This document shows positions 48,301 to 59,998 of a stretch of 64,000 nt of DNA, piece after piece; within the stretch, counting starts at the first letter, position 1, and every line of letters begins with the position of its first letter. Below the pieces are notes generated by a model. That model saw nothing but the letters and a program-made list of their open reading frames with translations, ran no database searches and had not been told where the DNA came from. The translations under genes and the position numbers were made by a program. The DNA is from an uncultured Acidobacteriota bacterium (lineage in GTDB: Bacteria; Acidobacteriota; Thermoanaerobaculia; Gp7-AA8): NCBI GenBank assembly GCA_963822445.1, contig CAWGHO010000001.1:640001-704000 (forward strand). The letters run 5' to 3'.

Positions 48301-50620
48301 GGTAGGCGATGGCCACGCCGATCACCAGCACCGCCAGCAATGTGGCCGCGACCCGGAACGCAGGCGTGAGCAGAAGCAGCAATGCCAGCGGGAACCAGAA
48401 CGCGAGCACGGCGTAGATCGAGCCGAAGTCGCCGAGCATGCCGATCATCAGCGCGACCGGAGCAAACACCAGCGCGATGACGGCAGTGATCGAGTCGCCG
48501 TGGGTCGGCTCTGCCTGCGCGGAGCCGTCGCCGTCGAGGACCTGCAGTGCGTCCTCCGTTGCCGCGAGCGGCCGCGCCAGCAGGAGAAGTGCAGGAATCC
48601 CCACCATCCAGAACGGGGCGACGATCTGACGCACGTACTCCGGCGCGATGCGCGCGAGCACCAGCACGACCACCGTGCCGGCCAACCAGATCAGAACCAG
48701 TGGTCTTACTGCCGGCGCACGCAGCGCGGTCGTAACCCGCAGGACGGGTCGCGGCACATGACGCAGCCACTTGTGTGTGGATCGCGGCTGGGACAAGGTA
48801 TCGGCCAGCGTTCGCCAGAAGGTCCGGCCGGCTTCGAAGGTCACGCGATACGGAAGCTGCCAGATGATCGAGAGCGCGCGCAGGACCGTTCCGCCGAACG
48901 CCGCCGCGATCGCAAGCGCCGCCACGACGTAGACCACGAGCAGGAGTCGATCGAAGGGCGACGGCCGGAAAAGCTCCACCAGATTCGGCAGGACCTGCCG
49001 CGGCATGAGCACGAATTCGGCGATCGAGCCTGCCACCAACGCTACGGCGACGCCCGCGGTCACAGCCGCGCTGTGCCGTTCGAATTCGACTCCGGGCCGG
49101 TGATGCAGCCAAAGTCGGATGGCGAGGGTGATGAAGCCGGGCACGATCACCAGCGCCGCGAGCGTGCCGGCCAGCCCTTTGGCAGTCACCTCGTCGATCG
49201 CCGCCGGCGTGAGCAGATAGCGGACGGCGAGCAGCACGCGGATCAACAACACGGTCCAAACGGCGGCGATCACGCCGCCGATGCACCAGAGGTCGCGCAG
49301 CCGGAGGCGATGCATGCGGCCGAAGGCGATCGAAGCGACAAAGCCGGCGAGGATCAGCCACGCCAGTCCGAGCGCGAGCAGCAGCGCGCGCGGCGTCGGC
49401 AGGTCGCGGATGACGGTGATCGTGAGCAGCAGCCCGCGCGCGCGCGCCAGATTCGGCATGAGCAACGGCACGCGGATGCTGGAGAGAGCGCGGTTCGGCT
49501 CGAAGGCGGCGCCGAGCACCCCTTTGGTCCGGACAAAGCGCGGCGCGTCAGGGCCGGCCCGCGGCGTGAGATCGGCGCCGTCGCGAAACCGCGGCAGCCC
49601 GCCTTCAGAAAGCCGCAGCGCCGCGTCGTGCCGGAACTCCGCGGCTCCATGACCGAGCGGGAGAAGAAAGGTGTTCGCGCCGGCGGCGGGCTCGCGCCCG
49701 AACGAGAGCGTGCTCGCGTTCTCCGTGAATGGCGGGAGCGAGGTCGTGCGCGTCCACGGCGGATCGAACGAGAGACGCGGCCGGCCGCCTTCATCCCTCA
49801 GGCGCATGACCAGCCGGCGGCGCGGCCAGAGCACTTCGACGACCGCCGGCTTTCCGTCGCGCAGCGTAACCGGAAGCTCGCGCCACGATTCATCATCCGT
49901 AAGCAATCGCACTTCGTTCTTGTGAGGCCGAAGCACGCGGATCGACGCCGCCCACTCCTCGAGCGCACGCACGTTCGCGAGGTCGAGCTTTCCCTCGCGC
50001 CGCAAATCGTTCAACCGCGACTGGAGCAGCGAGTCGAGCGACCGGGCGCGCGTCGCATGCACTTCAGGCGGATTCATGATGACCATCGGCTCGGCCACCG
50101 GCGTGCGGCTGATGATCAGTTTCCGCCGCCGCAGGAATCCTTTGCGCCGCAGCTCGAGGGAGAACTTGCCGGCCTGCTTCGCGCCGCCGCCGAGGGTGAC
50201 CACGTCGCCGTTCGCGTACGCGCCGTCGACGCGTACGAGCGCCGTTCCGCCACGCGTCCGCAGCCGAAACCCACCACCGCCCGCCCGTTCCACGCGCACC
50301 TCGGGACGGAAACTGCCATTCGGCCAGCCGATGACCGCCGAGTGCTCCGCACCACCGATGGCGATGGTTCCCGACTCAGGGTCGGCGCTTTCGGCAGCGG
50401 TCCATGCGATCTGTGTCGACCGCGGCCACTCGGCCACCGACACCAGCGGCCAGAGCGTGAATGGCACCGCCGCGAGCGTCGCGACGAGAATCACGACGAA
50501 AGGCGCGATGTGACGACGGTTACCGAGCGACGGAAGGGCCTCTTCCCGATGCCGCAGTTCGAGCACCCACGCGATGCACACGTACCCCACGAGGCACAGC
50601 GCCAGCATCGGAATGGTCAT
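45341..50620 (-). CDS. Giant fusion: FHA-like domain, FtsW/RodA (SEDS)-like polytopic domain and class-B-like PBP transpeptidase, 1759 aa
   Basis: SEDS-like GDFGS, GGWDGLG, YDSVYSFFISAEHG and GRNLPLLAT; transpeptidase LTLDADLQ, TGEVLAM, SxxK (GSAAK ~46435-46450), SxN (SDN ~46240) and KTG (~45545). Confidence 0.8.
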   Translation of the reverse strand: MTIPMLALCLVGYVCIAWVLELRHREEALPSLGNRRHIAPFVVILVATLAAVPFTLWPLVSVAEWPRSTQIAWTAAESADPESGTIAIGGAEHSAVIGWPNGSFRPEVRVERAGGGGFRLRTRGGTALVRVDGAYANGDVVTLGGGAKQAGKFSLELRRKGFLRRRKLIISRTPVAEPMVIMNPPEVHATRARSLDSLLQSRLNDLRREGKLDLANVRALEEWAASIRVLRPHKNEVRLLTDDESWRELPVTLRDGKPAVVEVLWPRRRLVMRLRDEGGRPRLSFDPPWTRTTSLPPFTENASTLSFGREPAAGANTFLLPLGHGAAEFRHDAALRLSEGGLPRFRDGADLTPRAGPDAPRFVRTKGVLGAAFEPNRALSSIRVPLLMPNLARARGLLLTITVIRDLPTPRALLLALGLAWLILAGFVASIAFGRMHRLRLRDLWCIGGVIAAVWTVLLIRVLLAVRYLLTPAAIDEVTAKGLAGTLAALVIVPGFITLAIRLWLHHRPGVEFERHSAAVTAGVAVALVAGSIAEFVLMPRQVLPNLVELFRPSPFDRLLLVVYVVAALAIAAAFGGTVLRALSIIWQLPYRVTFEAGRTFWRTLADTLSQPRSTHKWLRHVPRPVLRVTTALRAPAVRPLVLIWLAGTVVVLVLARIAPEYVRQIVAPFWMVGIPALLLLARPLAATEDALQVLDGDGSAQAEPTHGDSITAVIALVFAPVALMIGMLGDFGSIYAVLAFWFPLALLLLLTPAFRVAATLLAVLVIGVAIAYQALLGGYAIAPGMTEHILSRVEVMKYGSAAQEWLLDLEAPSQGDAKAVTAGSVRNALVHAWEHMAMVRKGGWDGLGFNRAPASQSFIRQDTIQYDSVYSFFISAEHGIFGGLFLLAIFAVPAVLLLMRRSRLRIGDLLAIAIAAAFFGEAVVHAAMNVSQLWFSGRNLPLLATASNSDALRWALLLGLMCQALLWSSGLRADSVEMLPETAVTRTTIFDPDFVHRRRRLMRRGILAAIVLLGAIVALATNDFAWLAFALAIPLAIRLGKREYAALALLPALLVTVLVVRGSIRAVRSNEFDVLTWSRLLRRVDELRDAGTLRFDEAKKLIRYCNGEDCTDRPGGATLLEAEVLRFNSLPVALRMDGGRESLPADFFNGLTHPEEYYTRMFELWRREIDRGARTRPSVFAIRRVEEDAEGAAEIAYEVTGNPDYNIVHSFAEERSEEELPPVSIRGGQGPVRILGRAWVMGRWFYATTREARRLGLGWMGHAGDALLRVHREPRISELTLDADLQRITQATVDGAGREGFSKLIAEGASAPLPPRVAMTILRGTTGEVLAMSSWPRAADRDDWSSRTVTAGGRSWIERDPPFSWLSATTPRPLASRHAVDHNLAAIEIGSAAKPFWATAALIVHPRLDDLLWTRNGPCDRVVKKRCYEQELFGAEIGKGWQVSPRARWIDFSTYLAASDNRYHTRLGFLGFARGEGNRIGDDGRGPAGSDRESLTASATPWNRYPALADSTGHTRDKPLQVANLHEQRVAALMRDLFGVRTGAPSADGDLRRRHLSFWSGDESDDLGTSNALEPLAVVSPEAVDLSLNRITRTRELIAVLLGGASSRWSNVGAAAAFSSWAIRKPVVAHIVPVSAAKPLASRTAAFDKEAAAAAAKLDRGLWRVLEDGTAIRIRSRVQPLRNRYDVYAKTGTLATIDPERPTSRILMVIIARDDDGRAKNALTLSFVAERSSEGFATEQLGRFIDNHMAELLRLMEP

Positions 50621-50720
50621 GCGTACATCTGGCGCTTACACGCTCCCTGCCATCAGACGTTCTTACGGACAGCAGGTAAAACGGTTTGAGCTGAGGATCG
50701 CCGCGCTCGTCACGCGCTGG

Positions 50721-51185
50721 TCATTTGCCTTCGCGGAGCAGTACCCGCGCATCATCGAGCGTGTTGTCGATGGCTTCCTGACTGCGCACGAGGTCCGTCG
50801 ATGGAGGCGAACCATTGCGCACGGACGCGTCGAGCTCGCCGACCAGGTTGCGCAGATCGCGCATCGCTCCCTGCGTCTTCAGGCACGACTCGTTTTCACA
50901 CGTACACGCCGAATCAGCCTCGGAAATCCGCTGGTCGATGTCGGTCTTGAACCTGCTCCAGGCTTCGATGTCGTACGGCGGGTTCACGAAGCGCCCCAGA
51001 CCGTTGCCCCAGGCATTCGACGCAGCCGTTGCGCGGCCGACGCAGGAGTCGTCCGCGCGCGAATCAATGCTCGTCGCGGCGGACTTCGTGCTCAGGCGGC
51101 CCTTGATCCGCGGCGCGAGCTCCTTCCAGCCAAAGACGAGCAAGGCCAGGATGACCACCCACTTCACCAGCTTCCCAATTTCCAT
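50721..51185 (-). CDS. Membrane-anchored hypothetical protein with four Cys
   Basis: MEIGKLVKWVVILALLVFGW anchor; helical domain with SC...ACTCENESC. Confidence 0.65.
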   Translation of the reverse strand: MEIGKLVKWVVILALLVFGWKELAPRIKGRLSTKSAATSIDSRADDSCVGRATAASNAWGNGLGRFVNPPYDIEAWSRFKTDIDQRISEADSACTCENESCLKTQGAMRDLRNLVGELDASVRNGSPPSTDLVRSQEAIDNTLDDARVLLREGK

Positions 51186-51521
51186 GGCAATGAGTATGCG
51201 CGCGATCCTGACCGCCGGCCACTCCGCCACGGCCCGAGGACGAACGGAATCGCCTTGACGCCTTTCCAGACGGGTAGTCCGTACGCCGTCGGATCGATTG
51301 CAGAAAAGCAAGAATTTAGAAAGGAGGCAAAAACTCACCCCTTTTCCCAGTTTGTGAGGCGTGAGCTCGCATGACGAAGGCGTTGATCTGTTCTCGCGTC
51401 GCGAGTTGAAGTGAGTGTTCTTGCTCGAAGCAAGTGATGTGGCCGTAGCCTTAAAGTCAAAATCCCGGAGACGCCTTCGTGTTTGGTGTCGGGATGCCGG
51501 AAGTGTAGCTCCTCGGCGGAC

Positions 51522-51577
51522 TTTTCTTGGTTTCGGCTACGCCGAGGTAGGGAAATTGCCCGCCGATGCACCCCTAC
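51522..51577 (+). promoter_or_regulatory. Conserved leader element, copy 1 (palindrome TCGGC-TAC-GCCGA plus bulged hairpin)
   Basis: ttttcttggtttcggctacgccgaggtaggg matches 54853-54883 at 30 of 31 nt; ends 55 nt before ATG 51607. Confidence 0.7.
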
Positions 51578-51606
51578 ACAGGGGGATACCTCTGCGAGAG
51601 GTACGC

Positions 51607-52452
51607 ATGACGCAGACTCACCACGTCGTTCAGGTTCTCGGTGCCGCGCACGGACGCAAGACGCTGGCACATTGGAATACGGGTTCGGCATCGCGCCTGA
51701 TTGTCTTCGTTCACGGTTTTGGCGGGAAGCCTGACACCACTTGGCCGGATTTCCCCACGCTCCTCCGGCAGAAGGCGGGCCCTCCGCCCTTCGACTACGT
51801 CTTCTTTGGCTACGATGGGTTGCGCAAGCAAGCCACGAACAGCGGGAAGCAGTTTCTTGGATTCCTGGACCACTTTCTCGGTGACCCGGCGGCACTCGTC
51901 AACGCGACGATTCCGTCCCTCGAGAAGCGTAAATCGTTCACCTACGACCGCGTCGTGATCGCCGCGCATTCGCTCGGGGCGGTGGTCACGCGACGGGCGT
52001 TGCTCGATGCGCATGCCCTGCATGCGGCGGGGAAACTCATGCCCTGGCTGCCGACTGTGCGTCTGGTCTTCTTTGCGCCGGCGCACACTGGCGCATACGC
52101 CGCGGGGCTCGTCACCGAAGCACTCACCGATCAACCGTGGTACCTCGCGAAGCTGGCTGGGTATTACGCTCGTTTCCAGAGCCCGCTCCTCGCAGACCTC
52201 AAGGAAGGCTCGCAAGTGTTGCGCGCCCTTGCCGATGACACGGCCAAGATCACCGACCACGTGATGCCCCCACCGCACTATGTGCGCGCACGTGTCCTCC
52301 TCGCGGGGGACGAGATTGTCGTGAACAACACGCGCTTCGGGGTCGACCCGGTGGTGCCGCCGCAAGACGTGCTTCCCTCCAGCCACACCGGAGTCTGCAA
52401 GCCACGACGCATCGACCACGCCGCACTACGGGCCGTCTGGAACGAGCTATGA
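51607..52452 (+). CDS. Alpha/beta hydrolase, PGAP1/DUF676/SesB-like lipase, cytoplasmic
   Basis: IVFVHGFGG oxyanion loop, AHSLG nucleophile elbow, PAHTGA, GDEIV (acid) and SHTGVCKP (His); no signal peptide. Confidence 0.8.
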   Translation: MTQTHHVVQVLGAAHGRKTLAHWNTGSASRLIVFVHGFGGKPDTTWPDFPTLLRQKAGPPPFDYVFFGYDGLRKQATNSGKQFLGFLDHFLGDPAALVNATIPSLEKRKSFTYDRVVIAAHSLGAVVTRRALLDAHALHAAGKLMPWLPTVRLVFFAPAHTGAYAAGLVTEALTDQPWYLAKLAGYYARFQSPLLADLKEGSQVLRALADDTAKITDHVMPPPHYVRARVLLAGDEIVVNNTRFGVDPVVPPQDVLPSSHTGVCKPRRIDHAALRAVWNEL

Positions 52453-54485
52453 CGATCAAGGACGACAACCTCCGGGCGATCGATCACCACTACCTGACCG
52501 CTCGCGAACGCAGGGCTCAGCGGTTCCTAGCCACGGCCAGTCCAACGGCGCGGGCGCGAACGTTGGAGAGTCACCTCCTGCGCGAGCCGAGTCAGAGGGC
52601 GCAAGGTCTGCGAGACGATGTCGACTGCCTTCTCCGCTACTACAGCGTGCTCGAGCTGGCTTCCATCACCGGAGCGATTCCTGAGCTTCCCATTGCGACG
52701 CGCGAGATCGCACTCCGGAACCTCAACGATGAGTACCTCCGCCGGTACTATGAGCGGTATTACCCGCAACTGCTGCCCCAGCTTCTCCGTGCGCGTGTCA
52801 GTGGCGACAAGGTTCTCGGGGTTGACGAGGATTGCACAGAAGACTTTCTGCGGTTTGTGACGCTCGATGCGTCGCGCGACGACGACGACCTTGAGACGTT
52901 CCTGGGGTTTTTGGACGATTACGCGTACGTGATCGATGAGGAGACCCATGACCTGAGCAGCGTGGTGCGCACGATTGCGCACCCCAAGCGCTTCCTCGCT
53001 GCCCTGAGCGTCGACGACGAGGACCGGACGCCAACCGATGAGGGGGTGGTGGGCTTCCTCAGGTTTCTCTCGTTCTCTCGCGACCTCGAGCACCTCCTTC
53101 GCCAGGTCGACAGTCCCTTGGTTCGATCCTGCATCTGGCACTACTACGGGTACTGGTATCAGGAATTGGGCGGGCAAGTGCTTGGTGCACTGCTGACAGG
53201 CATCCACATCCTGGGCGGGTATGTTCCACGATCCGCCACAAACGCAGCGGAAGAGAGGGCGCTCGCGCGCACGCATGCAGATATGGCCGCTGCCGCAGCC
53301 TCGCTCCAGCGACTCACGTCGAGCGTGTACCGCGTGCACTTGGAAGAGGAGATCGATGGCGTTCTGTACCTCCGCATCATGGAGGACGCAGACGCAGGGT
53401 CCGCAGAGGCTCGAGCAGAGCCCGCGGAAGCGAACGAGAGAGCCCAAGCACAGAAGGTCCCCGTCGCCGAGCGGGAGAAGGTCTACAACGAGTTCAAGGA
53501 CAAGATGGGCGAGCTCGAACATGGTTACGTCAAGCGCTTGGAACGCGGCGACATGATCGTCGACCTCAACGGCAAAACCGAAGGGATCATCCCGCGGCAC
53601 CATCAGTCGCGCGCCGAGCGCTACTCGCAGGGCGACCCCATCAAGGCCGTCATCGTCGACGTGCACATGCAGGCGAAGGGACCGCAGGTCGTGCTTTCGC
53701 GCACCGATCCGCGCCTGCTCATTAAGCTGTTCGAAATGGAAGTTCCGGAGATCTACGACGGCACGGTGGTCATCAAGGGCGCGGTGCGCGAGCCGGGTGA
53801 GCGCGCGAAGATCGCGGTCATGTCCCGCGAGCGCGACATCGATCCGGTCGGCGCCTGCGTGGGCAAGAAGGGCTCGCGCGTGCAGTCCATCATCCGCGAG
53901 TTGGGCGGCGAGAAGATCGACATCATCCCCTGGCACGAAGACATCGTGAACTACGCGCAGACCGCGCTCGCTCCGGCGAAGATCAACCGCGTCTCGGTGA
54001 CCAGCGACGAGCAGGCGGACCGTCCGCACCTCGACGTCATCGTCGACAACGATCAGCTCTCGCCGGCCATCGGCAAGCGCGGCCTGAACGTGCGTCTGGC
54101 GGCGGAACTGATCGGCGCGAAGATCGCCATCAAGTCCGAGGAAGAAGTTAAGGGCGAGGTCGCCGACGCGCTCGCGGCCATGCTGCAGGAAGCTATGGCG
54201 GAGTCCCGCTCGCAGACCACCGTGGGCGAGATCGAGAACATGCCGAATGAGTGGGCGCAGCTCCTCGAGGACGCCGGCTACGACGACCTCGACTCGCTCA
54301 TCAACGCCTCCGTGGAAGATCTGATCACCATCGAAGGCGTGGACGAAGACATGGCCGTGCAGATGATCGAGCGGGCCCGCAAGCACGAGCAGGTCGAAGA
54401 GACCGGGCTCGACGAGGAGACTGAAGACACCGCCGAAGCAGCCAGCGAGCAATTCGAGGAGCAAGAAGTCGACAACGAGGCATAA
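52449..54485 (+). CDS. Unknown helical domain (~330 aa) fused to N-terminally truncated NusA (S1-KH1-KH2 plus acidic/HhH tail)
   Basis: From ~53451: QKV..AEREKVYNEF, PQVVLSRT, LFEMEVPEIYDG, REPGERAKIAV, DPVGACVG.KGSRVQ, GEKIDII and AIGKRG.NVRLA; continuous 678-aa ORF; ATGA overlap with the hydrolase. Confidence 0.88.
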   Translation: MTIKDDNLRAIDHHYLTARERRAQRFLATASPTARARTLESHLLREPSQRAQGLRDDVDCLLRYYSVLELASITGAIPELPIATREIALRNLNDEYLRRYYERYYPQLLPQLLRARVSGDKVLGVDEDCTEDFLRFVTLDASRDDDDLETFLGFLDDYAYVIDEETHDLSSVVRTIAHPKRFLAALSVDDEDRTPTDEGVVGFLRFLSFSRDLEHLLRQVDSPLVRSCIWHYYGYWYQELGGQVLGALLTGIHILGGYVPRSATNAAEERALARTHADMAAAAASLQRLTSSVYRVHLEEEIDGVLYLRIMEDADAGSAEARAEPAEANERAQAQKVPVAEREKVYNEFKDKMGELEHGYVKRLERGDMIVDLNGKTEGIIPRHHQSRAERYSQGDPIKAVIVDVHMQAKGPQVVLSRTDPRLLIKLFEMEVPEIYDGTVVIKGAVREPGERAKIAVMSRERDIDPVGACVGKKGSRVQSIIRELGGEKIDIIPWHEDIVNYAQTALAPAKINRVSVTSDEQADRPHLDVIVDNDQLSPAIGKRGLNVRLAAELIGAKIAIKSEEEVKGEVADALAAMLQEAMAESRSQTTVGEIENMPNEWAQLLEDAGYDDLDSLINASVEDLITIEGVDEDMAVQMIERARKHEQVEETGLDEETEDTAEAASEQFEEQEVDNEA

Positions 54486-54852
54486 GGACGAAGGTCGCAT
54501 TCTCCGGTTGGAACGAAGTCGGTTCAACGATCCGTGCATCTCGCCTCGCACGCCTGGATCGATGCTCCTGGAAACACACGGTTGTTCACCCTCGCCTTTC
54601 AGCATCGGGAGTGCTGACGCGAGATCTACAAGAGCCTGAATCGGTGCCGGACGAACGCAGGCGTTCGAAAGGCGACAGAGTACTTTGAAGCCCTCTTCGC
54701 AAGGCGTGGCGAGACTGCTTTTCCTGAACGGATCGCGACGGTCGTCGAGGCGAGCGTCGCAGAGGTGATCGATATCCGGGCGCACGGGGCGGTGCTGCTG
54801 TCACCCAGGAGAAGTTGTTAGTCAAGGATCTCCGGTCGCGCGTTCGTTCGTA

Positions 54853-54908
54853 TTTTGTTGGTTTCGGCTACGCCGAGGTAGGGGAAAAGTGTTCGTCAGA
54901 CACTCCTA
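54853..54908 (+). promoter_or_regulatory. Conserved leader element, copy 2
   Basis: ttttgttggtttcggctacgccgaggtaggg, ending 54 nt before ATG 54937; followed by TAGG..AGTGT/ACACT-CCTA hairpin. Confidence 0.7.
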
Positions 54909-54936
54909 GAACGTAATCGTCCGAAAGAGGTGACCG

Positions 54937-56658
54937 ATGCAGGCCGACCGCACACGTGTGTTGACGATCGTCGCGCAGGATCCGCTGTTCACGTATCCCG
55001 AGGGTCATCCCAAGGAAGGGCGCATCGTCACGGCGCGCATTCGCGTGCCGGCGGAGACACTGGCGGCCGGTCCGCGCGGGTACCGCGTTCACTGCATCGA
55101 CTACGACGCCACGACGAACACCTACTACAACACCAATCTGCCGGACGACGACCGCTTCGACGATCCCGACGACAAGACCATCCTCGGCGATCCGAGCTTT
55201 CACTGCCAGAACGTCTACGCCCTGGTCATGCACACGCTGGCGCGCTTCGAGTTTGCCTTGGGCCGCCGCGTGAGCTGGGGCTTCTACGGCCATCAGCTCA
55301 AGGTGGCGCCGCACGCGTTCGCGGAAGCCAACGCCTTCTACTCCGAAGAAGACCACTCCCTGCTCTTCGGTTACTTCCTTCCCGAAGGGGCGAAACGCCC
55401 GATCTTCACTTCCCTGTCGCACGACGTCGTCGTTCACGAGACCACCCACGCACTGCTCGACGGCCTCCGCACGCGCTACACCGATCCGTCGTCCCCCGAT
55501 CAGGCGGCGTTCCACGAGGGGTTCTCGGACGTCATCGCCCTGCTCTCCGTCTTCTCCTTGCGCGAGGTGCCGGAACTGCTGATCTCGCGGCCGGAGCTCA
55601 AGATCAACAAGCTCAAGGGCGATCTCATCCCGACCGCGCTCCTCACACCGGAGAACCTCCGCCTCGGCATCGGCGGACTCGCGGAAGAAGTGGGCAAGGG
55701 TCTCCTCGGCGTGCGCGCGAACGCGCTTCGCGAGTCGCTTGCCCTGGATCCAGAAACGACCGACATCAACGACTCCGAATTCAATGAACCGCATCGCCGC
55801 GGAGAGGTGTTCGTCGCCGCGATCATGAACGCGTTCATCGAGCTCTGGAGCCACGAGATCGGACGGATCGGCGCGCGCTGGTCGGACAAGGTCGATCGCA
55901 GCAAGGTCGTCGAGGAAGGGGCGCGGCTCGCCGACGTGATGCTCACCTCAGCCATCCGCGCACTCGACTACACCCCGCCGGTGGACCTCGAGTTTTCCGA
56001 CTACTTGAGCGCGTTTCTCACAGCCGATTCAGAGATCCGCACGGATGACCGGATGAATCTGCGCGGAATCGTCAGGAAGAGCTTCGAAGCGTACGGAATC
56101 AAGCCAATCGCCAAAGACGGGGTCTGGGACCACGCGGACAAAGGGCCGCAGACTCTCCGCTATGACCGCACCCATTTCGAGCCGATGCAGAGCGATCCCG
56201 ACGAGGTGTTTCACTGGGTCTGGGAGAACCGCCAGCAGGACTACCTCGGTCTCCTCGACGATGGTTACACCCGTATCCTCTCGGTCAGGCCGTGCACGCG
56301 TGTCGGTCCGGACGGGTTCCTCCTCCGCGAAACGGTCTCCGAGTATCTGCAGGTCCTGAAGATCCGGGCGGGCGACCTGCCCAAGTTCGGGCTGACGAAG
56401 CCCGAGACGATGCCCGGCGAGCAGGAGATTTACCTTTACGGGGGCGGCGCGCTGATCTTCGACGAGTACGGCCGCCTCAAGTACCACGTGTACAACCCGC
56501 TGCACGGCAAGAAGCAGATCGGCCGCGTCGACTACCTGTGGAAGCACGGCTACTACCGCGCCGATCGCTCGCAGCTCGCATTCGCCGGGATGCACCGGAT
56601 GCGCGTGATCGGTGGATTGGCTTTCGGCGAAGCGTCGGACTTGCAGGAGGTGTGGTGA
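54937..56658 (+). CDS. Cytoplasmic M4/M36-like (gluzincin) zinc metalloprotease
   Basis: ANAFYS, DVVVHETTHALLDG (HExxH), AFHEGFSD (third ligand) and EPHRRG; no signal peptide. Confidence 0.82.
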   Translation: MQADRTRVLTIVAQDPLFTYPEGHPKEGRIVTARIRVPAETLAAGPRGYRVHCIDYDATTNTYYNTNLPDDDRFDDPDDKTILGDPSFHCQNVYALVMHTLARFEFALGRRVSWGFYGHQLKVAPHAFAEANAFYSEEDHSLLFGYFLPEGAKRPIFTSLSHDVVVHETTHALLDGLRTRYTDPSSPDQAAFHEGFSDVIALLSVFSLREVPELLISRPELKINKLKGDLIPTALLTPENLRLGIGGLAEEVGKGLLGVRANALRESLALDPETTDINDSEFNEPHRRGEVFVAAIMNAFIELWSHEIGRIGARWSDKVDRSKVVEEGARLADVMLTSAIRALDYTPPVDLEFSDYLSAFLTADSEIRTDDRMNLRGIVRKSFEAYGIKPIAKDGVWDHADKGPQTLRYDRTHFEPMQSDPDEVFHWVWENRQQDYLGLLDDGYTRILSVRPCTRVGPDGFLLRETVSEYLQVLKIRAGDLPKFGLTKPETMPGEQEIYLYGGGALIFDEYGRLKYHVYNPLHGKKQIGRVDYLWKHGYYRADRSQLAFAGMHRMRVIGGLAFGEASDLQEVW

Positions 56659-58120
56659 TGGCGAAACCAACCGCTCTCGACATCCGCGCGTACAACATCG
56701 GCTTCGGAGACTGTTTCCTGCTCACCTTCCGGTACGGCGCGAAGGATCAGCGGCACATGCTCATCGACTTCGGGACGACCCGGAAGCCCGATGACGCCGA
56801 AAAGGATCACGAGCTGCAGATCGCGAAGGACATCGCCGGTGTCACCAGCAACAAGCTCGACGTGGTGGTGGCCACGCACCGGCACAAGGTCACATCAGCG
56901 GTTTCCGGACCCGGAAGAAGCCGGGCGACGACGAGGAGCCGGGCGACGTGATCCGCGAGTGCGCGAAAGACGCCGTGGTGATCATGCCCTGGACCGAGGA
57001 CCCCGAAGCCAAGACGGGCGCAACCGGTCCGAGGAAAAAATCGTTCGTCGACCAGCTCACATCGATGCACTCCTTCGCCGCGTCCGTGGTGCGGGAGATC
57101 GATCAGGACGTGGAAGACAAACTGCTGGCCGACGCGGACATCAACGACCCGACCGAGATCGCCGCCAGCACAGGGCCGAAGCACCGCATGCATCGCGAGG
57201 AGAGCGATGACTCCGAAGGCGGGAACTGGTTCTCGACGAAGACCCTGCGCAAACGAATCGCCTTCATCGGCGAAGACGCGATCAGCAACGTCTCGGCCGT
57301 TCGCAACCTCGTCACCATGAGCAAGAAGGAGAAGCGCCACTACGTCACCTACGACTACAAGCTCGACCTGCGCGCCGCTCTCCCGGGCGTGAAAGTGAGA
57401 GTCCTCGGTCCGCCGAGCGTCGACCAGTGGGAAAACGTGCAGAACCAGAAGGCCAGGAACAAGGATGAGTACTGGCACCTGCAGGAGGACTTCTGGCGGC
57501 GCCTCGCGCTCAGCTCGAACCTCGGCGTCAGCGACGGACGGGCCAAGCCGCTCTTCCCGCGCGCTCCCCAATGCGAGCCGGAAGAGCGCTGTTCGCACCG
57601 GAAAGCCTGCTCGCAGATCCCGCGCGCCAGCGAGTGGTTCGTGCGGCGGCTGCGCGGCGTGCGGGCCAAGCAACTCATGCAGCTCGTGCTGTCGATGGAC
57701 AGCGCCATGAACAACACCAGCGTCATCCTGCTCATCGAGGTCGGCGGCAAGAAGCTGTTGTTCCCTGGCGACGCGCAGTGGGAGAACTGGGAGTACGCGC
57801 TGGTCGGCGACGAGAAGAAAGCCGCGGCCAACCTGAAAGAGCTCGCCGACGTCGACGTCTACAAAGTCGGGCACCACGGCAGTCTCAACGCCACGCCGAA
57901 GAAGCTCTGGAACAACTTCTCCAAGCGGAGCGACAAGCCGAACGCAAAAGGCCGAATGCTCTCGATCATCTCGACGAAAAAAGGCGTGCACGCGCACTCG
58001 CCGCAGACCGCGGTTCCGCGGTCGACGCTGGTCCGCGAGCTGAAGTCGGAGACGAACTACCGCAGCACGGAGCCGGTCAAGCCGAAGGAGCTTTGCCTGG
58101 TGGAGACGATCGACTTATGA
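56658..58120 (+). CDS. MBL-fold (ComEC/Rec2-like) metallo-hydrolase, one-base deletion at ~56890
   Basis: YNIGFGDCFLL and MLIDFG; restoring one A gives THRHKDHISGF (HxHxDH); then NNTSVI, LFPGDAQ and YKVGHHGS; TGATG coupling to the protease. Confidence 0.82.
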
Positions 58121-58121
58121 C

Positions 58122-59247
58122 CTAGTGCGTGTGCGCATGGTCGTGGGCGTGATCGTGATGATGTTCATCCGCGCCGTGGGTGTGGCCGGCCATGCCGCTC
58201 TCCACCTGTTCGACGACCTGCCGGGCCAGCTCGCGGAACGCCTGAGCGGCCGGTGAGGCGGGATCGGCGACGACGATCGGCTCGCCGGTATCGCCACCTA
58301 CGACGACCTTCGGATCGATCGGAACCTCGCCCAGGAACGGCACGCCGAGCATCTCCGCGGTCTTGCGCCCTCCGCCGTGTCCGAAGATCTCCTCCCGCTC
58401 ACCGCAGTGGCGGCAGATGTAGTAGCTCATGTTCTCGACGATGCCGAGGATGGGCACGTTGACCTTGCGGAACATGGCCAGACCCTTCCGCGCGTCGATG
58501 AGGGCGACGTCCTGCGGCGTCGTCACGACGACCGCGCCGGTCAAGCCGGCTTTCTGCGTCAGCGTGAGCTGCGCGTCGCCGGTGCCTGGCGGCAGGTCGA
58601 TGATCATGAAGTCGAGCGTGCCCCACTTCACATCGGTCAGAAACTGGTCGATGCGCCTTCATCACCATCGGTCCACGCCAGATCACCGGCGTGTCGGGAT
58701 CGGTGATCAGTCCGAGAGACATCGTCTTGATGCCGTGGCGTTCCATCGGGACGATCTTCTCGTCGTGCTCGTCGATCTGCGGACGGCCTTCGATGCCGAG
58801 CATCATCTGCTGCGACGGTCCGTAGATGTCCGCGTCGAGCAGGCCCACGGAATGCCCGAGCGCGCGAATCGCCAGCGCGAGATTCGTCGAGACCGTCGAC
58901 TTCCCCACACCTCCTTTTCCCGAGGCAACGGCGATGCGGTATTTCACGCCACCGAGGGCTTGCGTGGGAGGAGCGGCGCCCTGCGGAAGCTGCGCGCCGC
59001 CGCGCGGACCGACCTCGAGATTCAGGCGAACGTCGCTGACGCCTTCGAGAGCGCGTACCGCTGCTTCGGTCTCGCGGGCGATCTGCTCGCCCACCGCGGG
59101 ATTCTCGGTCTGGAAGTGAACGGTGAGCGAGACCGTCGAGCCCTCGACGCGCACGTCGCGGACGAAGCCGAAGGAGACGATGTCCCGGGAGAGTCCCGGA
59201 AACTTAACTTTCTTGAGTGCTTCGAGTACCTGTTCCTGCGTCGGCAT
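58122..59247 (-). CDS. mrp: Mrp/ApbC (NBP35) Fe-S carrier ATPase, frameshift near 58653, His-rich tail
   Basis: [37 protein letters not shown] and [11 protein letters not shown]. Confidence 0.92.
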
Positions 59248-59998
59248 GCGGCTTCTCCTCCTGCAACCACCGTTCGTACGAGTCGCGGATGATCGGGATG
59301 GCCTCGTCAGAGGAGCCGACAACCTTGATCACGTCAAAGTCGGGAGCGCTGACCAGACCGCGCTCGAGCATCGTGCCGTGCAGCCAGTCGATCAGACCGG
59401 GCCACATTGTACCGACCAGAATCAGAGGATGCTGCTTCATGTGCTTGACCTGCAGAAGCTGCCAGACCATGAAGAGCTCGAGGGCCGTGCCGATGCCGCC
59501 GGGCATGACGATGAAGGCCGAGGAGAGGCGGATGAAGTGATGGAGCCGGGAGAAGAAGGTGCGATGACGGAACACCTTGTCGACGAACGGGTTAGCGGTC
59601 TCCTCGGTCGGCAGATGAATGGCCAGGCCGAACGAAAACGCCTTGCCCGTCTCCCCTTTTCCTTCCATCGCTCCCTGGTTCGCCGCTTCCATGAGTCCGG
59701 GGCCGCCGCCGGTGACGATGTCGACGCCCATCTTCGCCAGGTCGTGGCTCAGCTTCTTGACCTCTTCGTAGATCGGGTCGCCGAGGCGGATGCGGGAGCT
59801 GCCGAAAATCGAGACGCGGTAATGCTCGACCCGCTCGGGCTGGATCTGGTCGAGATCGTTGATCGTCTCCCAGAGCTGGTAGATGGCCCGGTCGAGGATG
59901 TACGTCGGGTCCGCGGTCGGCCGCTTCTTCGAAGCCTGGATGTTGCGCAGTTCCTCGAGCTCGGGCGTGGTCGTCTTACGGTCGTCTGAGTCAGCCAT
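59204..59998 (-). CDS. LOG family protein (nucleotide phosphoribohydrolase / lysine-decarboxylase-like)
   Basis: [20 protein letters not shown] and PGGIGTALE. Confidence 0.88.

Follow-up and report, generated by a model that had tools for sequence, protein, structure and literature searches.

The window analysed here is a stretch of 64,000 nucleotides (nt) from the genome of an uncultured Acidobacteriota bacterium (assembly GCA_963822445.1, contig CAWGHO010000001.1, positions 640,001 to 704,000 of the forward strand). One insertion-sequence family, for which we found no published description, is represented in it twice, by a non-autonomous copy and by a relic end. Both are marked by a repeat that had been noticed in a preliminary description of this DNA: positions 51522-51552 and 54853-54883 are identical at 30 of 31 nt, lie 3331 bp apart and end 54 and 53 nt before the ATGs of two operons (51607 and 54937; the values of 55 and 54 given earlier were counted to the A of the ATG). 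The repeat is a junction: its first 24 nt belong to the insertion sequence, as its hairpin end, and its last 7 nt (GGTAGGG) form a putative −35 box. We consider it likely that the transposon end is lodged in the −35 box of a probable class of promoters for extracytoplasmic function (ECF) sigma factors, and that the box is rebuilt by this end upon insertion. The palindrome TCGGC-TAC-GCCGA, also noticed earlier, is present at 51533-51545 and 54864-54876.

The 26-mer shared by the two repeats has two exact occurrences in the 6.0-Mb genome, and four when up to three mismatches are allowed (the pair of the window, C2:2189832, and C3:335334). The search of the genome and its relatives that the preliminary description had proposed, made with a 23-nt pattern, gave 34 sites in 15 of 61 genomes, all of them in the genus of the window, and none with the reversed control. 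These counts show that the repeat is not due to chance. It is not a generic repetitive extragenic palindromic (REP) repeat either, a possibility raised in the same description, since there are only four copies in 6.0 Mb and they have one orientation throughout relative to the two-box motif described below. The other end of the element, at 51274-51311, had been overlooked. The parts of the two insertions and the two motifs are as follows:

51273-51550, minus strand: non-autonomous copy (like a miniature inverted-repeat transposable element, MITE) with both termini, 273 bp from core to core
51273-51277, plus strand: right junction core GGTAG (CTACC on the transposase strand), from the sequence and the right junctions of full elements
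51274-51311, minus strand: right end with two short hairpins, which follows the transposase stop codon in full copies
51312-51521, no strand assigned: internal segment of about 210 nt without transposase homology, found in 5 of 35 genomes
51522-51545, minus strand: left end with terminal hairpin (51533-51545); in full copies, the transposase ATG follows after about 45 nt
54826-54881, minus strand: truncated left end of the autonomous type, about 55 nt kept, hairpin at 54864-54876
51546-51574, plus strand: two-box motif 1, probable ECF promoter; −35 box GGTAGGGA (51546-51553), −10 box CACCCC (51569-51574)
54877-54906, plus strand: two-box motif 2, probable ECF promoter; −35 box GGTAGGGG, −10 box CACTCC

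In congeners, a gene on the other strand usually reads away from the repeat, with its ATG about 45 nt off. Three full copies encode proteins of 508-513 residues, and the sequence found at 51274-51311 of the window follows their stop codons. Full elements of this near clade span 1,639-1,657 bp. The autonomous element has one gene, for a protein of about 510 residues; each end carries a hairpin, and one short core recurs at both junctions. Terminal inverted repeats are absent, and the left and right ends are unrelated except for the core. All 18 readable right junctions of full elements in the near clade read GGACTAC and then C. Both termini of 51273-51550 match those of full-length elements (L033, L045, L046, L047), and the entire copy has two counterparts in G012 and another in G028 at 82-83% identity; partial copies are found in G024, G006 and G003. 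It has the termini of its autonomous partner, no transposase and copies at unrelated sites, as is usual for non-autonomous elements. Folding four sequences of the internal segment revealed no evident structure (two-sided changes in 3/80 and 1/62). The right-end sequence occurs at 12 sites in 8 of the 35 genomes, just one of them in this genome. The truncated end at 54826-54881 aligns locally over 55 nt with a full element (L172), its transposase and right end being gone. We found no transposase gene in this genome, which is 94.7% complete.

The 33 distinct left ends comprise 3 of full-length elements, 5 that leave the contig within transposase DNA, 15 that retain 71-974 nt, 6 of the non-autonomous type of the window and 4 short relics. 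The genome G023 has three left ends with different flanks, and near-identical copies diverge directly after GGTAGGG. Elsewhere, in other phyla, the homologous left end reads CCTAACCCGGC-NNN-GCCGGAACCAAA, matching the reverse complement of the repeat, and the right end terminates in ACTA. Eight genomes of other groups carry 2-5 identical copies each, with homologous ends and differing flanks (this count excludes two pairs, one with common flanks and one spanning two genomes). At one locus (L165:1-2000), non-autonomous, full and decayed elements are stacked head to tail with a single CTAC core per joint; these joints link different copies, which indicates stacking and not a circle. The truncation points of decayed copies have no common motif by eye, so these copies do not fix the origin end. 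The left-end pattern was absent from the viral contigs searched, and the contigs of one DNA sequencing run (share 0.06) belonged to other organisms and had no joint across the element.

Further loci of the family were noted. A decayed non-autonomous copy in a two-box motif (L305, G024:C6:229074-229330) has the left-end hairpin unit three times and lacks the right end. A distant subfamily (L049, L050, L052; 31-35% identity) is present in the genus with other ends and at loci without the two-box motif. In this genome (G000), the region C2:2118113-2225400 encodes an integron integrase (TIGR02249 above the cut-off) followed by about 20 attC-like repeats. This array encloses several two-box motifs as well as the relic end at C2:2189832. 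The right end of an element in G023 (L083) abuts an attC-like repeat. Both short relic ends are cut close to the word GTTGTTAG (window 54815-54822, and near G000:C2 2189810), which recalls an attC core; a full attC was not seen in the window.

The preliminary description had considered that the whole repeat might be a shared promoter or operator. This fits its 3' part only, in which GGTAGGG forms the −35 box of a two-box motif seen across the genus; in motif 1, GGTAG doubles as the left junction core of the element. Two such motifs are found in the window, against 0.01 expected. The strict form, GGTAGGGA-N17/18-CTCC, has 43 copies in this genome and 8-63 in 33 of 34 congeners. Beyond these congeners there are 39 in G036, 1 in G015, 2 in G035, 7 in G037 and between 0 and 4 in each of the remaining 23, and the controls gave 0-6 (these tallies, and those of the two ECF families below, include the unpublished genomes G002, G025 and G042, on which alone no claim rests). 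A mononucleotide-shuffle control was uninformative for loose patterns and was replaced by a positional offset test: of 168 GGTAGGGR sites, 49 have CTCC at offset 25 or 26, with 0.75 expected per offset. A slightly wider rule identified 58 motif sites in this genome, of which 50 are intergenic. A strict ATG with a Shine-Dalgarno sequence follows 28 of these 58 motifs, compared with 5/58 on the opposite strand, 7/174 GGTAGGG sites that lack the −10 box and 4.8% of randomly chosen intergenic positions. The motif is also present in four genomes where element ends and transposase were not found (G005, G016, G026, G031). A scan for sigma-70 promoters returned none. We regard the two-box motif as very likely to be an ECF promoter, and found no published description of this promoter class or of its regulon. 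The genes behind the 58 motifs, inspected by eye, include patatin-like, metallo-beta-lactamase (MBL)-fold, peptidase, kinase and cyclase-like proteins and many uncharacterised secreted proteins.

One ECF sigma factor gene, C1:959975-960487, has an ortholog (69-90%) in the 33 motif-rich congeners and in G036, and only 40% and 46% matches in G015 and G035, the two members of the family that have 1-2 motifs. The motif is present in 19 of the 21 fetched loci of this factor, 3' of a tetratricopeptide repeat (TPR)-like gene and 5' of a short open reading frame (ORF) resembling a secreted peptide; one of the two exceptions is cut by a contig end and the other is the G015 paralog. This factor, or close paralogs, probably reads the motif. 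A second ECF family (C3:1254426), present in 31 of 34 congeners, fits less well: it was not found in G021 (14 motifs) or G034 (26 motifs). Proximity of the motif to any sigma gene gave no signal (2/36 within 5 kb, 2.2 expected, in a list that missed sites with longer spacers). At G000:C1:958317-960487 (L277:3300-5500) and at L308-L326, the ECF sigma gene, the TPR-like protein gene, the two-box motif and an ORF of 60-75 residues form a conserved locus. The peptide has a signal-peptide-like start and a proline-rich end (..D.P.PP.P), and the locus looks like a peptide-signalling circuit.

We analysed the insertion sites in two sets of left ends. The motif-found set was obtained with a pattern that fixed GGTAGG and nothing beyond, and includes the genome's own four copies. 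After GGTAGG the flanks vary, yet they retain GA(A/T), a variable spacer and (G/T)CACTCC, and a −10 box is found behind 32 of the 33 left ends. This is more than for intergenic GGTAGGGA sites (81%, p about 0.01, with kin that are not independent) and for intergenic GGTAGGG sites (59%, p 6e-7). The protein-found set was drawn from 23 loci at least 74% identical, 19 of them with a left end, from which we dropped three repeats of genus loci, one duplicate, one stack joint and two with flanks cut by the contig. The box is present in 9 of the remaining 12 (7 CTCC, 2 CACC), and two ends added from the genus search, one with and one without it, give 10/14; GGTAGGG is found in 14/14. Among distant relatives, CTCC is at that place in 2 of 102 flanks and only C-CTA(A) is conserved. 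The elements ending in CTAC form one branch (SH-aLRT 100), and the sister branch retains CTAA. In summary, 5'-GGTAGGG(A)-3' is the insertion site of the clade with the CTACC core, found in this genus. Because GGTAG is present in the end of the element as well, the −35 box is left whole after insertion.

The protein of about 510 residues has no family in Pfam, NCBIfam or PHROG (the best Pfam match is HTH_Crp_2, E-value 0.053), and neither the Rep_trans (PF02486) nor the IS91 transposase profile of Pfam matches it. It has at least 7,513 homologs (8,000 candidates scored), with 6,719 representatives at 50% clustering, which carry names such as 'hypothetical' or 'MarR'. In 135 sequences D20, E244, Y318, R326 and E328 are invariant, and D248 and K320 nearly so. 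A set of motifs of the Rep_trans type is found among these residues (Y318-D-K320, R326-x-E328, D20 and D248), with Y318 on a strand of the predicted model (313-320). For comparison, Rep_trans proteins are described as having the motifs YxKxxE and W/LxRxE together with three acidic residues, and their tyrosine sits on a strand (PMC5714925, PMC6499999). There is no invariant histidine among the invariant columns of the 135 sequences, so the combination of HUH and two-tyrosine motifs that marks IS91 is missing. The predicted structure has high confidence (pLDDT 95). In VIA-align, residues 1-387 match the TATA-binding protein (TBP; Z 9.2, root-mean-square deviation (rmsd) 3.7, 179 residues aligned) and residues 386-508 match winged-helix proteins (Z up to 9.8). 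The VIA lists were taken up by winged-helix proteins, with 4cij (RepSTK1) not among the top 50, and a sequence search of solved structures returned winged helices only, with no solved Rep_trans protein. The transposase had no matches among phages or 11 plasmid records, and only unnamed clusters in the Atlas. Motifs and model suggest that it is probably a rolling-circle-type tyrosine transposase of a Rep_trans-like kind.

We propose that the element would insert within the −35 box GGTAGGGA of a promoter (−10 box CACTCC) read by the sigma factor at C1:959975-960487. Its end would resupply GGTAG, so that the promoter would be rebuilt and the control of the operon retained. Such a landing site would be safe, self-repairing and reusable, leading to head-to-tail stacks. 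The presumed tyrosine nickase, with Y318, the acidic residues D20, D248 and E328, and a C-terminal winged helix, would nick at the core beside the terminal hairpin, and one strand would be moved by a rolling-circle or peel-and-paste route. It would act in trans on non-autonomous copies. The transposase would most likely read the box of 7-8 nt itself, and selection against insertions in genes would add to the promoter bias.

Several observations weigh against this scenario. We found no filled and empty pair of alleles with both flanks: the G014 operon has another upstream context, the G017/G000 pair differs by about 150 nt, and the search for an exact empty allele with 75 flanks against this genome gave no join of two flanks. 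A target duplication of 2-5 bp is indistinguishable from the shared core. The promoter function and the assignment of the sigma factor rest on sequence, in genomes whose kinship makes them non-independent. Four of the 14 protein-found ends lack the −10 box. The box is present in 44 of the 54 intergenic GGTAGGGA sites of this genome regardless of the element, and the 9 of 12 protein-found ends are no excess over that background (p 0.83). The tree that groups the CTAC-ended elements was a quick one, without bootstrap, of 60 of the 106 proteins. Finally, motif I of the protein lacks the R of RxD, and the best Foldseek match of the predicted model, RepSTK1 (4cij), is weak (E-value 2e-4, TM-score 0.19-0.34, rmsd about 12 A).

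Recognition of a word of 7-8 nt, together with selection, is the simplest account of the promoter bias and the most likely. A doubtful alternative is that the element is guided to true promoters, either by a transposase that recognises the −35 and −10 boxes together or through recruitment of the transposase by the ECF holoenzyme or opened promoter DNA. The excess of −10 boxes behind the motif-found ends over both backgrounds is in line with guidance, and the change of the ends, from CTAA to CTAC, falls on the branch living in the genus with this regulon. However, the protein-found ends (10/14) are compatible with word recognition plus selection, the background was computed from one genome with a home-made gene finder, and the sites of related genomes are not independent.

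Another reading, which we hold rather unlikely, is that the element moves by a chemistry other than a rolling-circle tyrosine nick, such as a staggered double-strand cut with a short target duplication. The low TM-scores to RepSTK1 and RepDE, the lack of a sequence match to any solved Rep_trans protein and the presence of CTA or CTACC at both junctions would agree with it. Yet YxK and RxE lie on beta strands and, with three conserved acidic residues, fit the description of Rep_trans proteins in PMC5714925 and PMC6499999. Moreover, the fourth base in distant relatives is fixed on the left (A in 98/102) and variable on the right (A in 78/93), and variation at the right junction only is unlike a duplication of 4 bp or more.

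The junctions lie in front of two operons, whose genes next to the element are the following:

51607-52452, plus strand: alpha/beta-hydrolase gene (Pfam Abhydrolase_6, E-value 2.4e-5, just under the cut-off)
52449-54485, plus strand: gene for an N-terminal domain of no known family joined to a second copy of the S1-KH-KH-C-terminal part of NusA (family scans)
54937-56658, plus strand: probable metalloprotease gene (HExxH read from the sequence; no Pfam or NCBIfam match)

The native nusA (C3:436712-437679) and the segment 53451-54418 share 87% identity; the changes include GMKG to GKKG and SLAIG to SPAIG, and the N-terminal domain of NusA is replaced by the uncharacterised domain of about 325 residues. 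The latter is present in 2 of 35 genomes, has no match in the Atlas and is joined to a different C-terminal domain in G014. Given that the NusA part is a second copy and that the G014 domain has another partner, NusA does not explain the repeat. The preliminary description had found the proximity of a NusA fusion suggestive, and this link now looks incidental: the related operon of G014 has the same motif and N-terminal domain with another C-terminal domain, and no element end. Its match to the window (87%) starts exactly at 51546. Likewise, three of the four protease homologs at 53% identity (G013, G024, G029) have the motif 64-104 nt upstream and no element end, and the fourth has no motif within the 400 nt examined. 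Orthologous operons therefore keep the two-box motif without the element.

It had also been suggested that the repeats are recombination sites bracketing the hydrolase-NusA module as an exchangeable cassette. They are indeed mobile ends, those of a transposon, but there is no sign that they bracket an exchangeable 3.3-kb cassette. A related possibility is a composite unit from 51273 to 54881, in which copying started from the right end, passed the first left end and stopped at the second, with the hydrolase-NusA operon as a passenger, in the manner of IS91/ISCR elements. The order of the ends (a right one, then two left ones, all in line), the homology of the G014 operon that begins at the core, and the read-through of terminators described for rolling-circle transposons (PMC5714925) would suit such a unit. 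We nevertheless deem it unlikely, as separate insertions, one into each promoter, account for the layout equally well, the copies differ in type (copy 2 autonomous, copy 1 non-autonomous), and we saw no relative with the left-flank gene beside the protease operon (0/17 loci with the motif within 400 nt). A broader version of our proposal would combine these elements: a clade of an undescribed class of bacterial transposons, with a Rep_trans-like, non-HUH tyrosine transposase, that altered its end and its target to fit an ECF −35 box, rebuilds the promoter upon insertion, is steered by the promoter or the holoenzyme, and shuffles promoter-operon modules within the regulon by read-through from end to end. 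We put this forward tentatively, and doubt it more than we believe it.

If the two-box motif were the operator of a transcription factor or some other signal, one would understand why 30 of the 58 motifs have no strict ATG with Shine-Dalgarno within 110 nt. This is quite improbable: the motif is asymmetric and strand-specific with a fixed gap of 17/18 nt, ends in CTCC like the −10 box predicted for ECF54 (PMC7826278), and co-occurs with one ECF family both by genome and by locus.

The preliminary description further drew a second hairpin downstream of each repeat and interpreted the differences between them as compensatory changes. Either copy allows such a hairpin to be drawn, but the structure is not conserved. 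When 33 distinct flanks were folded and compared with shuffles of their spacers, the mean z was +0.32 and none (0/33) fell below −2, so the compensatory changes are not borne out; the spacers of the genome's own 58 two-box sites gave a mean z of +0.08. CCTA is present in only 15 of the 33 flanks downstream of the left end, and the minimum free energy fold of copy 2 in the shuffle test did not contain the proposed TAGG/CCTA stem. What looks like a second hairpin is the partial complementarity of the two boxes (AGG of the −35 box with CCT of the −10 box), with no structural selection. The first hairpin does covary at its first pair (TA 22, CG 8, TG 3 of 33), as expected for the hairpin of a DNA end. 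Both hairpins would lie upstream of the transcription start of the putative promoter. An Rfam scan of 50500-55500 gave three sub-threshold matches, none at the repeats. A structured leader RNA (nut/put-like or a riboswitch) tied to the NusA fusion, as envisaged earlier, could draw on the two-sided change (TA to CG in 8/33) and the G-T pairs of hairpin 1, but is scarcely credible, as this hairpin recurs, in different phyla, as the conserved terminus of a multi-copy element, the second is not selected, neither copy has an Rfam match, and orthologous operons entirely without hairpin 1 already contradict it.

The peel-and-paste elements IS200/IS605 have subterminal hairpins, a fixed core of 4-5 nt, no inverted repeats and non-autonomous derivatives, and their TnpA is an HUH Y1 enzyme of about 150 residues. 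The present elements share the hairpins, the short core, the lack of inverted repeats and the non-autonomous copies, but have a non-HUH protein of about 510 residues. Target-specific elements include Tn7 (at attTn7), IS1111 at attC sites, and the yeast Ty3 and Tf1 at promoters. As in these, insertion occurs at a conserved host feature that limits damage; unlike in these, the feature is the −35 box of a probable class of alternative-sigma promoters and is rebuilt by the element's end. We found no published account of an insertion sequence that targets and rebuilds such a box.

The elements resemble IS91/ISCR in the lack of inverted repeats, the asymmetric ends, the single tyrosine-type initiator-like protein and the possible read-through (PMC5714925). 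However, the TnpA of IS91 is described there as an HUH enzyme with a two-tyrosine motif, whereas the present protein lacks an invariant pair of histidines, and its model shows a TBP-like sheet and a winged helix. The similarity to Rep_trans (PF02486) and MOBT proteins lies in the best Foldseek matches (RepSTK1 4cij, RepDE 4cwc/4cwe), in YxK and RxE on strands, in the conserved acidic residues and in a hairpin beside the presumed nick (PMC5714925 and PMC6499999). The differences from Rep_trans are the missing Pfam match, the weak structural scores, motif I without R, the extra C-terminal winged helix and the occurrence in multi-copy insertion sequences, with no match in phages or the 11 plasmid records. 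The Rep-Arvir family, with ORF19 of the archaeal virus SNJ2, combines a TBP-like Rep_trans-related nickase with a MarR-like winged helix and a hairpin origin (PMC13107129); in this comparison by description, it differs in being a replication initiator of archaeal viruses and plasmids and not a transposase. On the side of the promoter, the predicted ECF54 promoter is GTATCAG / CTCC, and this group is described as 100% actinobacterial, with sigma genes near TPR proteins and peptidases (PMC7826278). The −35 box that starts with GTA, the −10 box CTCC and the TPR protein near the sigma gene are alike, but the −35 box is GGTAGGGA here and the host is not actinobacterial, the comparison being one of promoter and neighbour descriptions. 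The string 'GTAGG' had no matches in a part of the supplement of PMC7826278, where the promoter of this sigma group may be listed elsewhere.

These results add a target rule to a very widespread family annotated as 'hypothetical' or 'MarR regulator'. Landing in a −35 box with its restoration would be a form of safe-site insertion for which we found no published account. The pair of clades with CTAA ends and a target of 4-5 nt, and with CTAC ends and a target of 7-8 nt, raises the question of whether the end sequence programs the target, which would bear on the mechanism and on the use of these elements as tools. The non-autonomous copy of 273 bp defines a minimal substrate. As a by-product, the analysis provides a putative ECF regulon of 20-60 operons and a candidate sigma factor in an uncultured genus of Acidobacteriota.

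The protease operon continues with one more gene:

56658-58120, plus strand: MBL-fold hydrolase gene in two pieces, with a frame change near 56890

This gene has weak matches to Avs1a and ComEC, below the cut-off, and its split may be a sequencing error or the mark of a pseudogene. It is followed on the minus strand (window 58122-59322) by a gene for a ParA-type ATPase of the Mrp/NUBPL kind, which is also in two frames.

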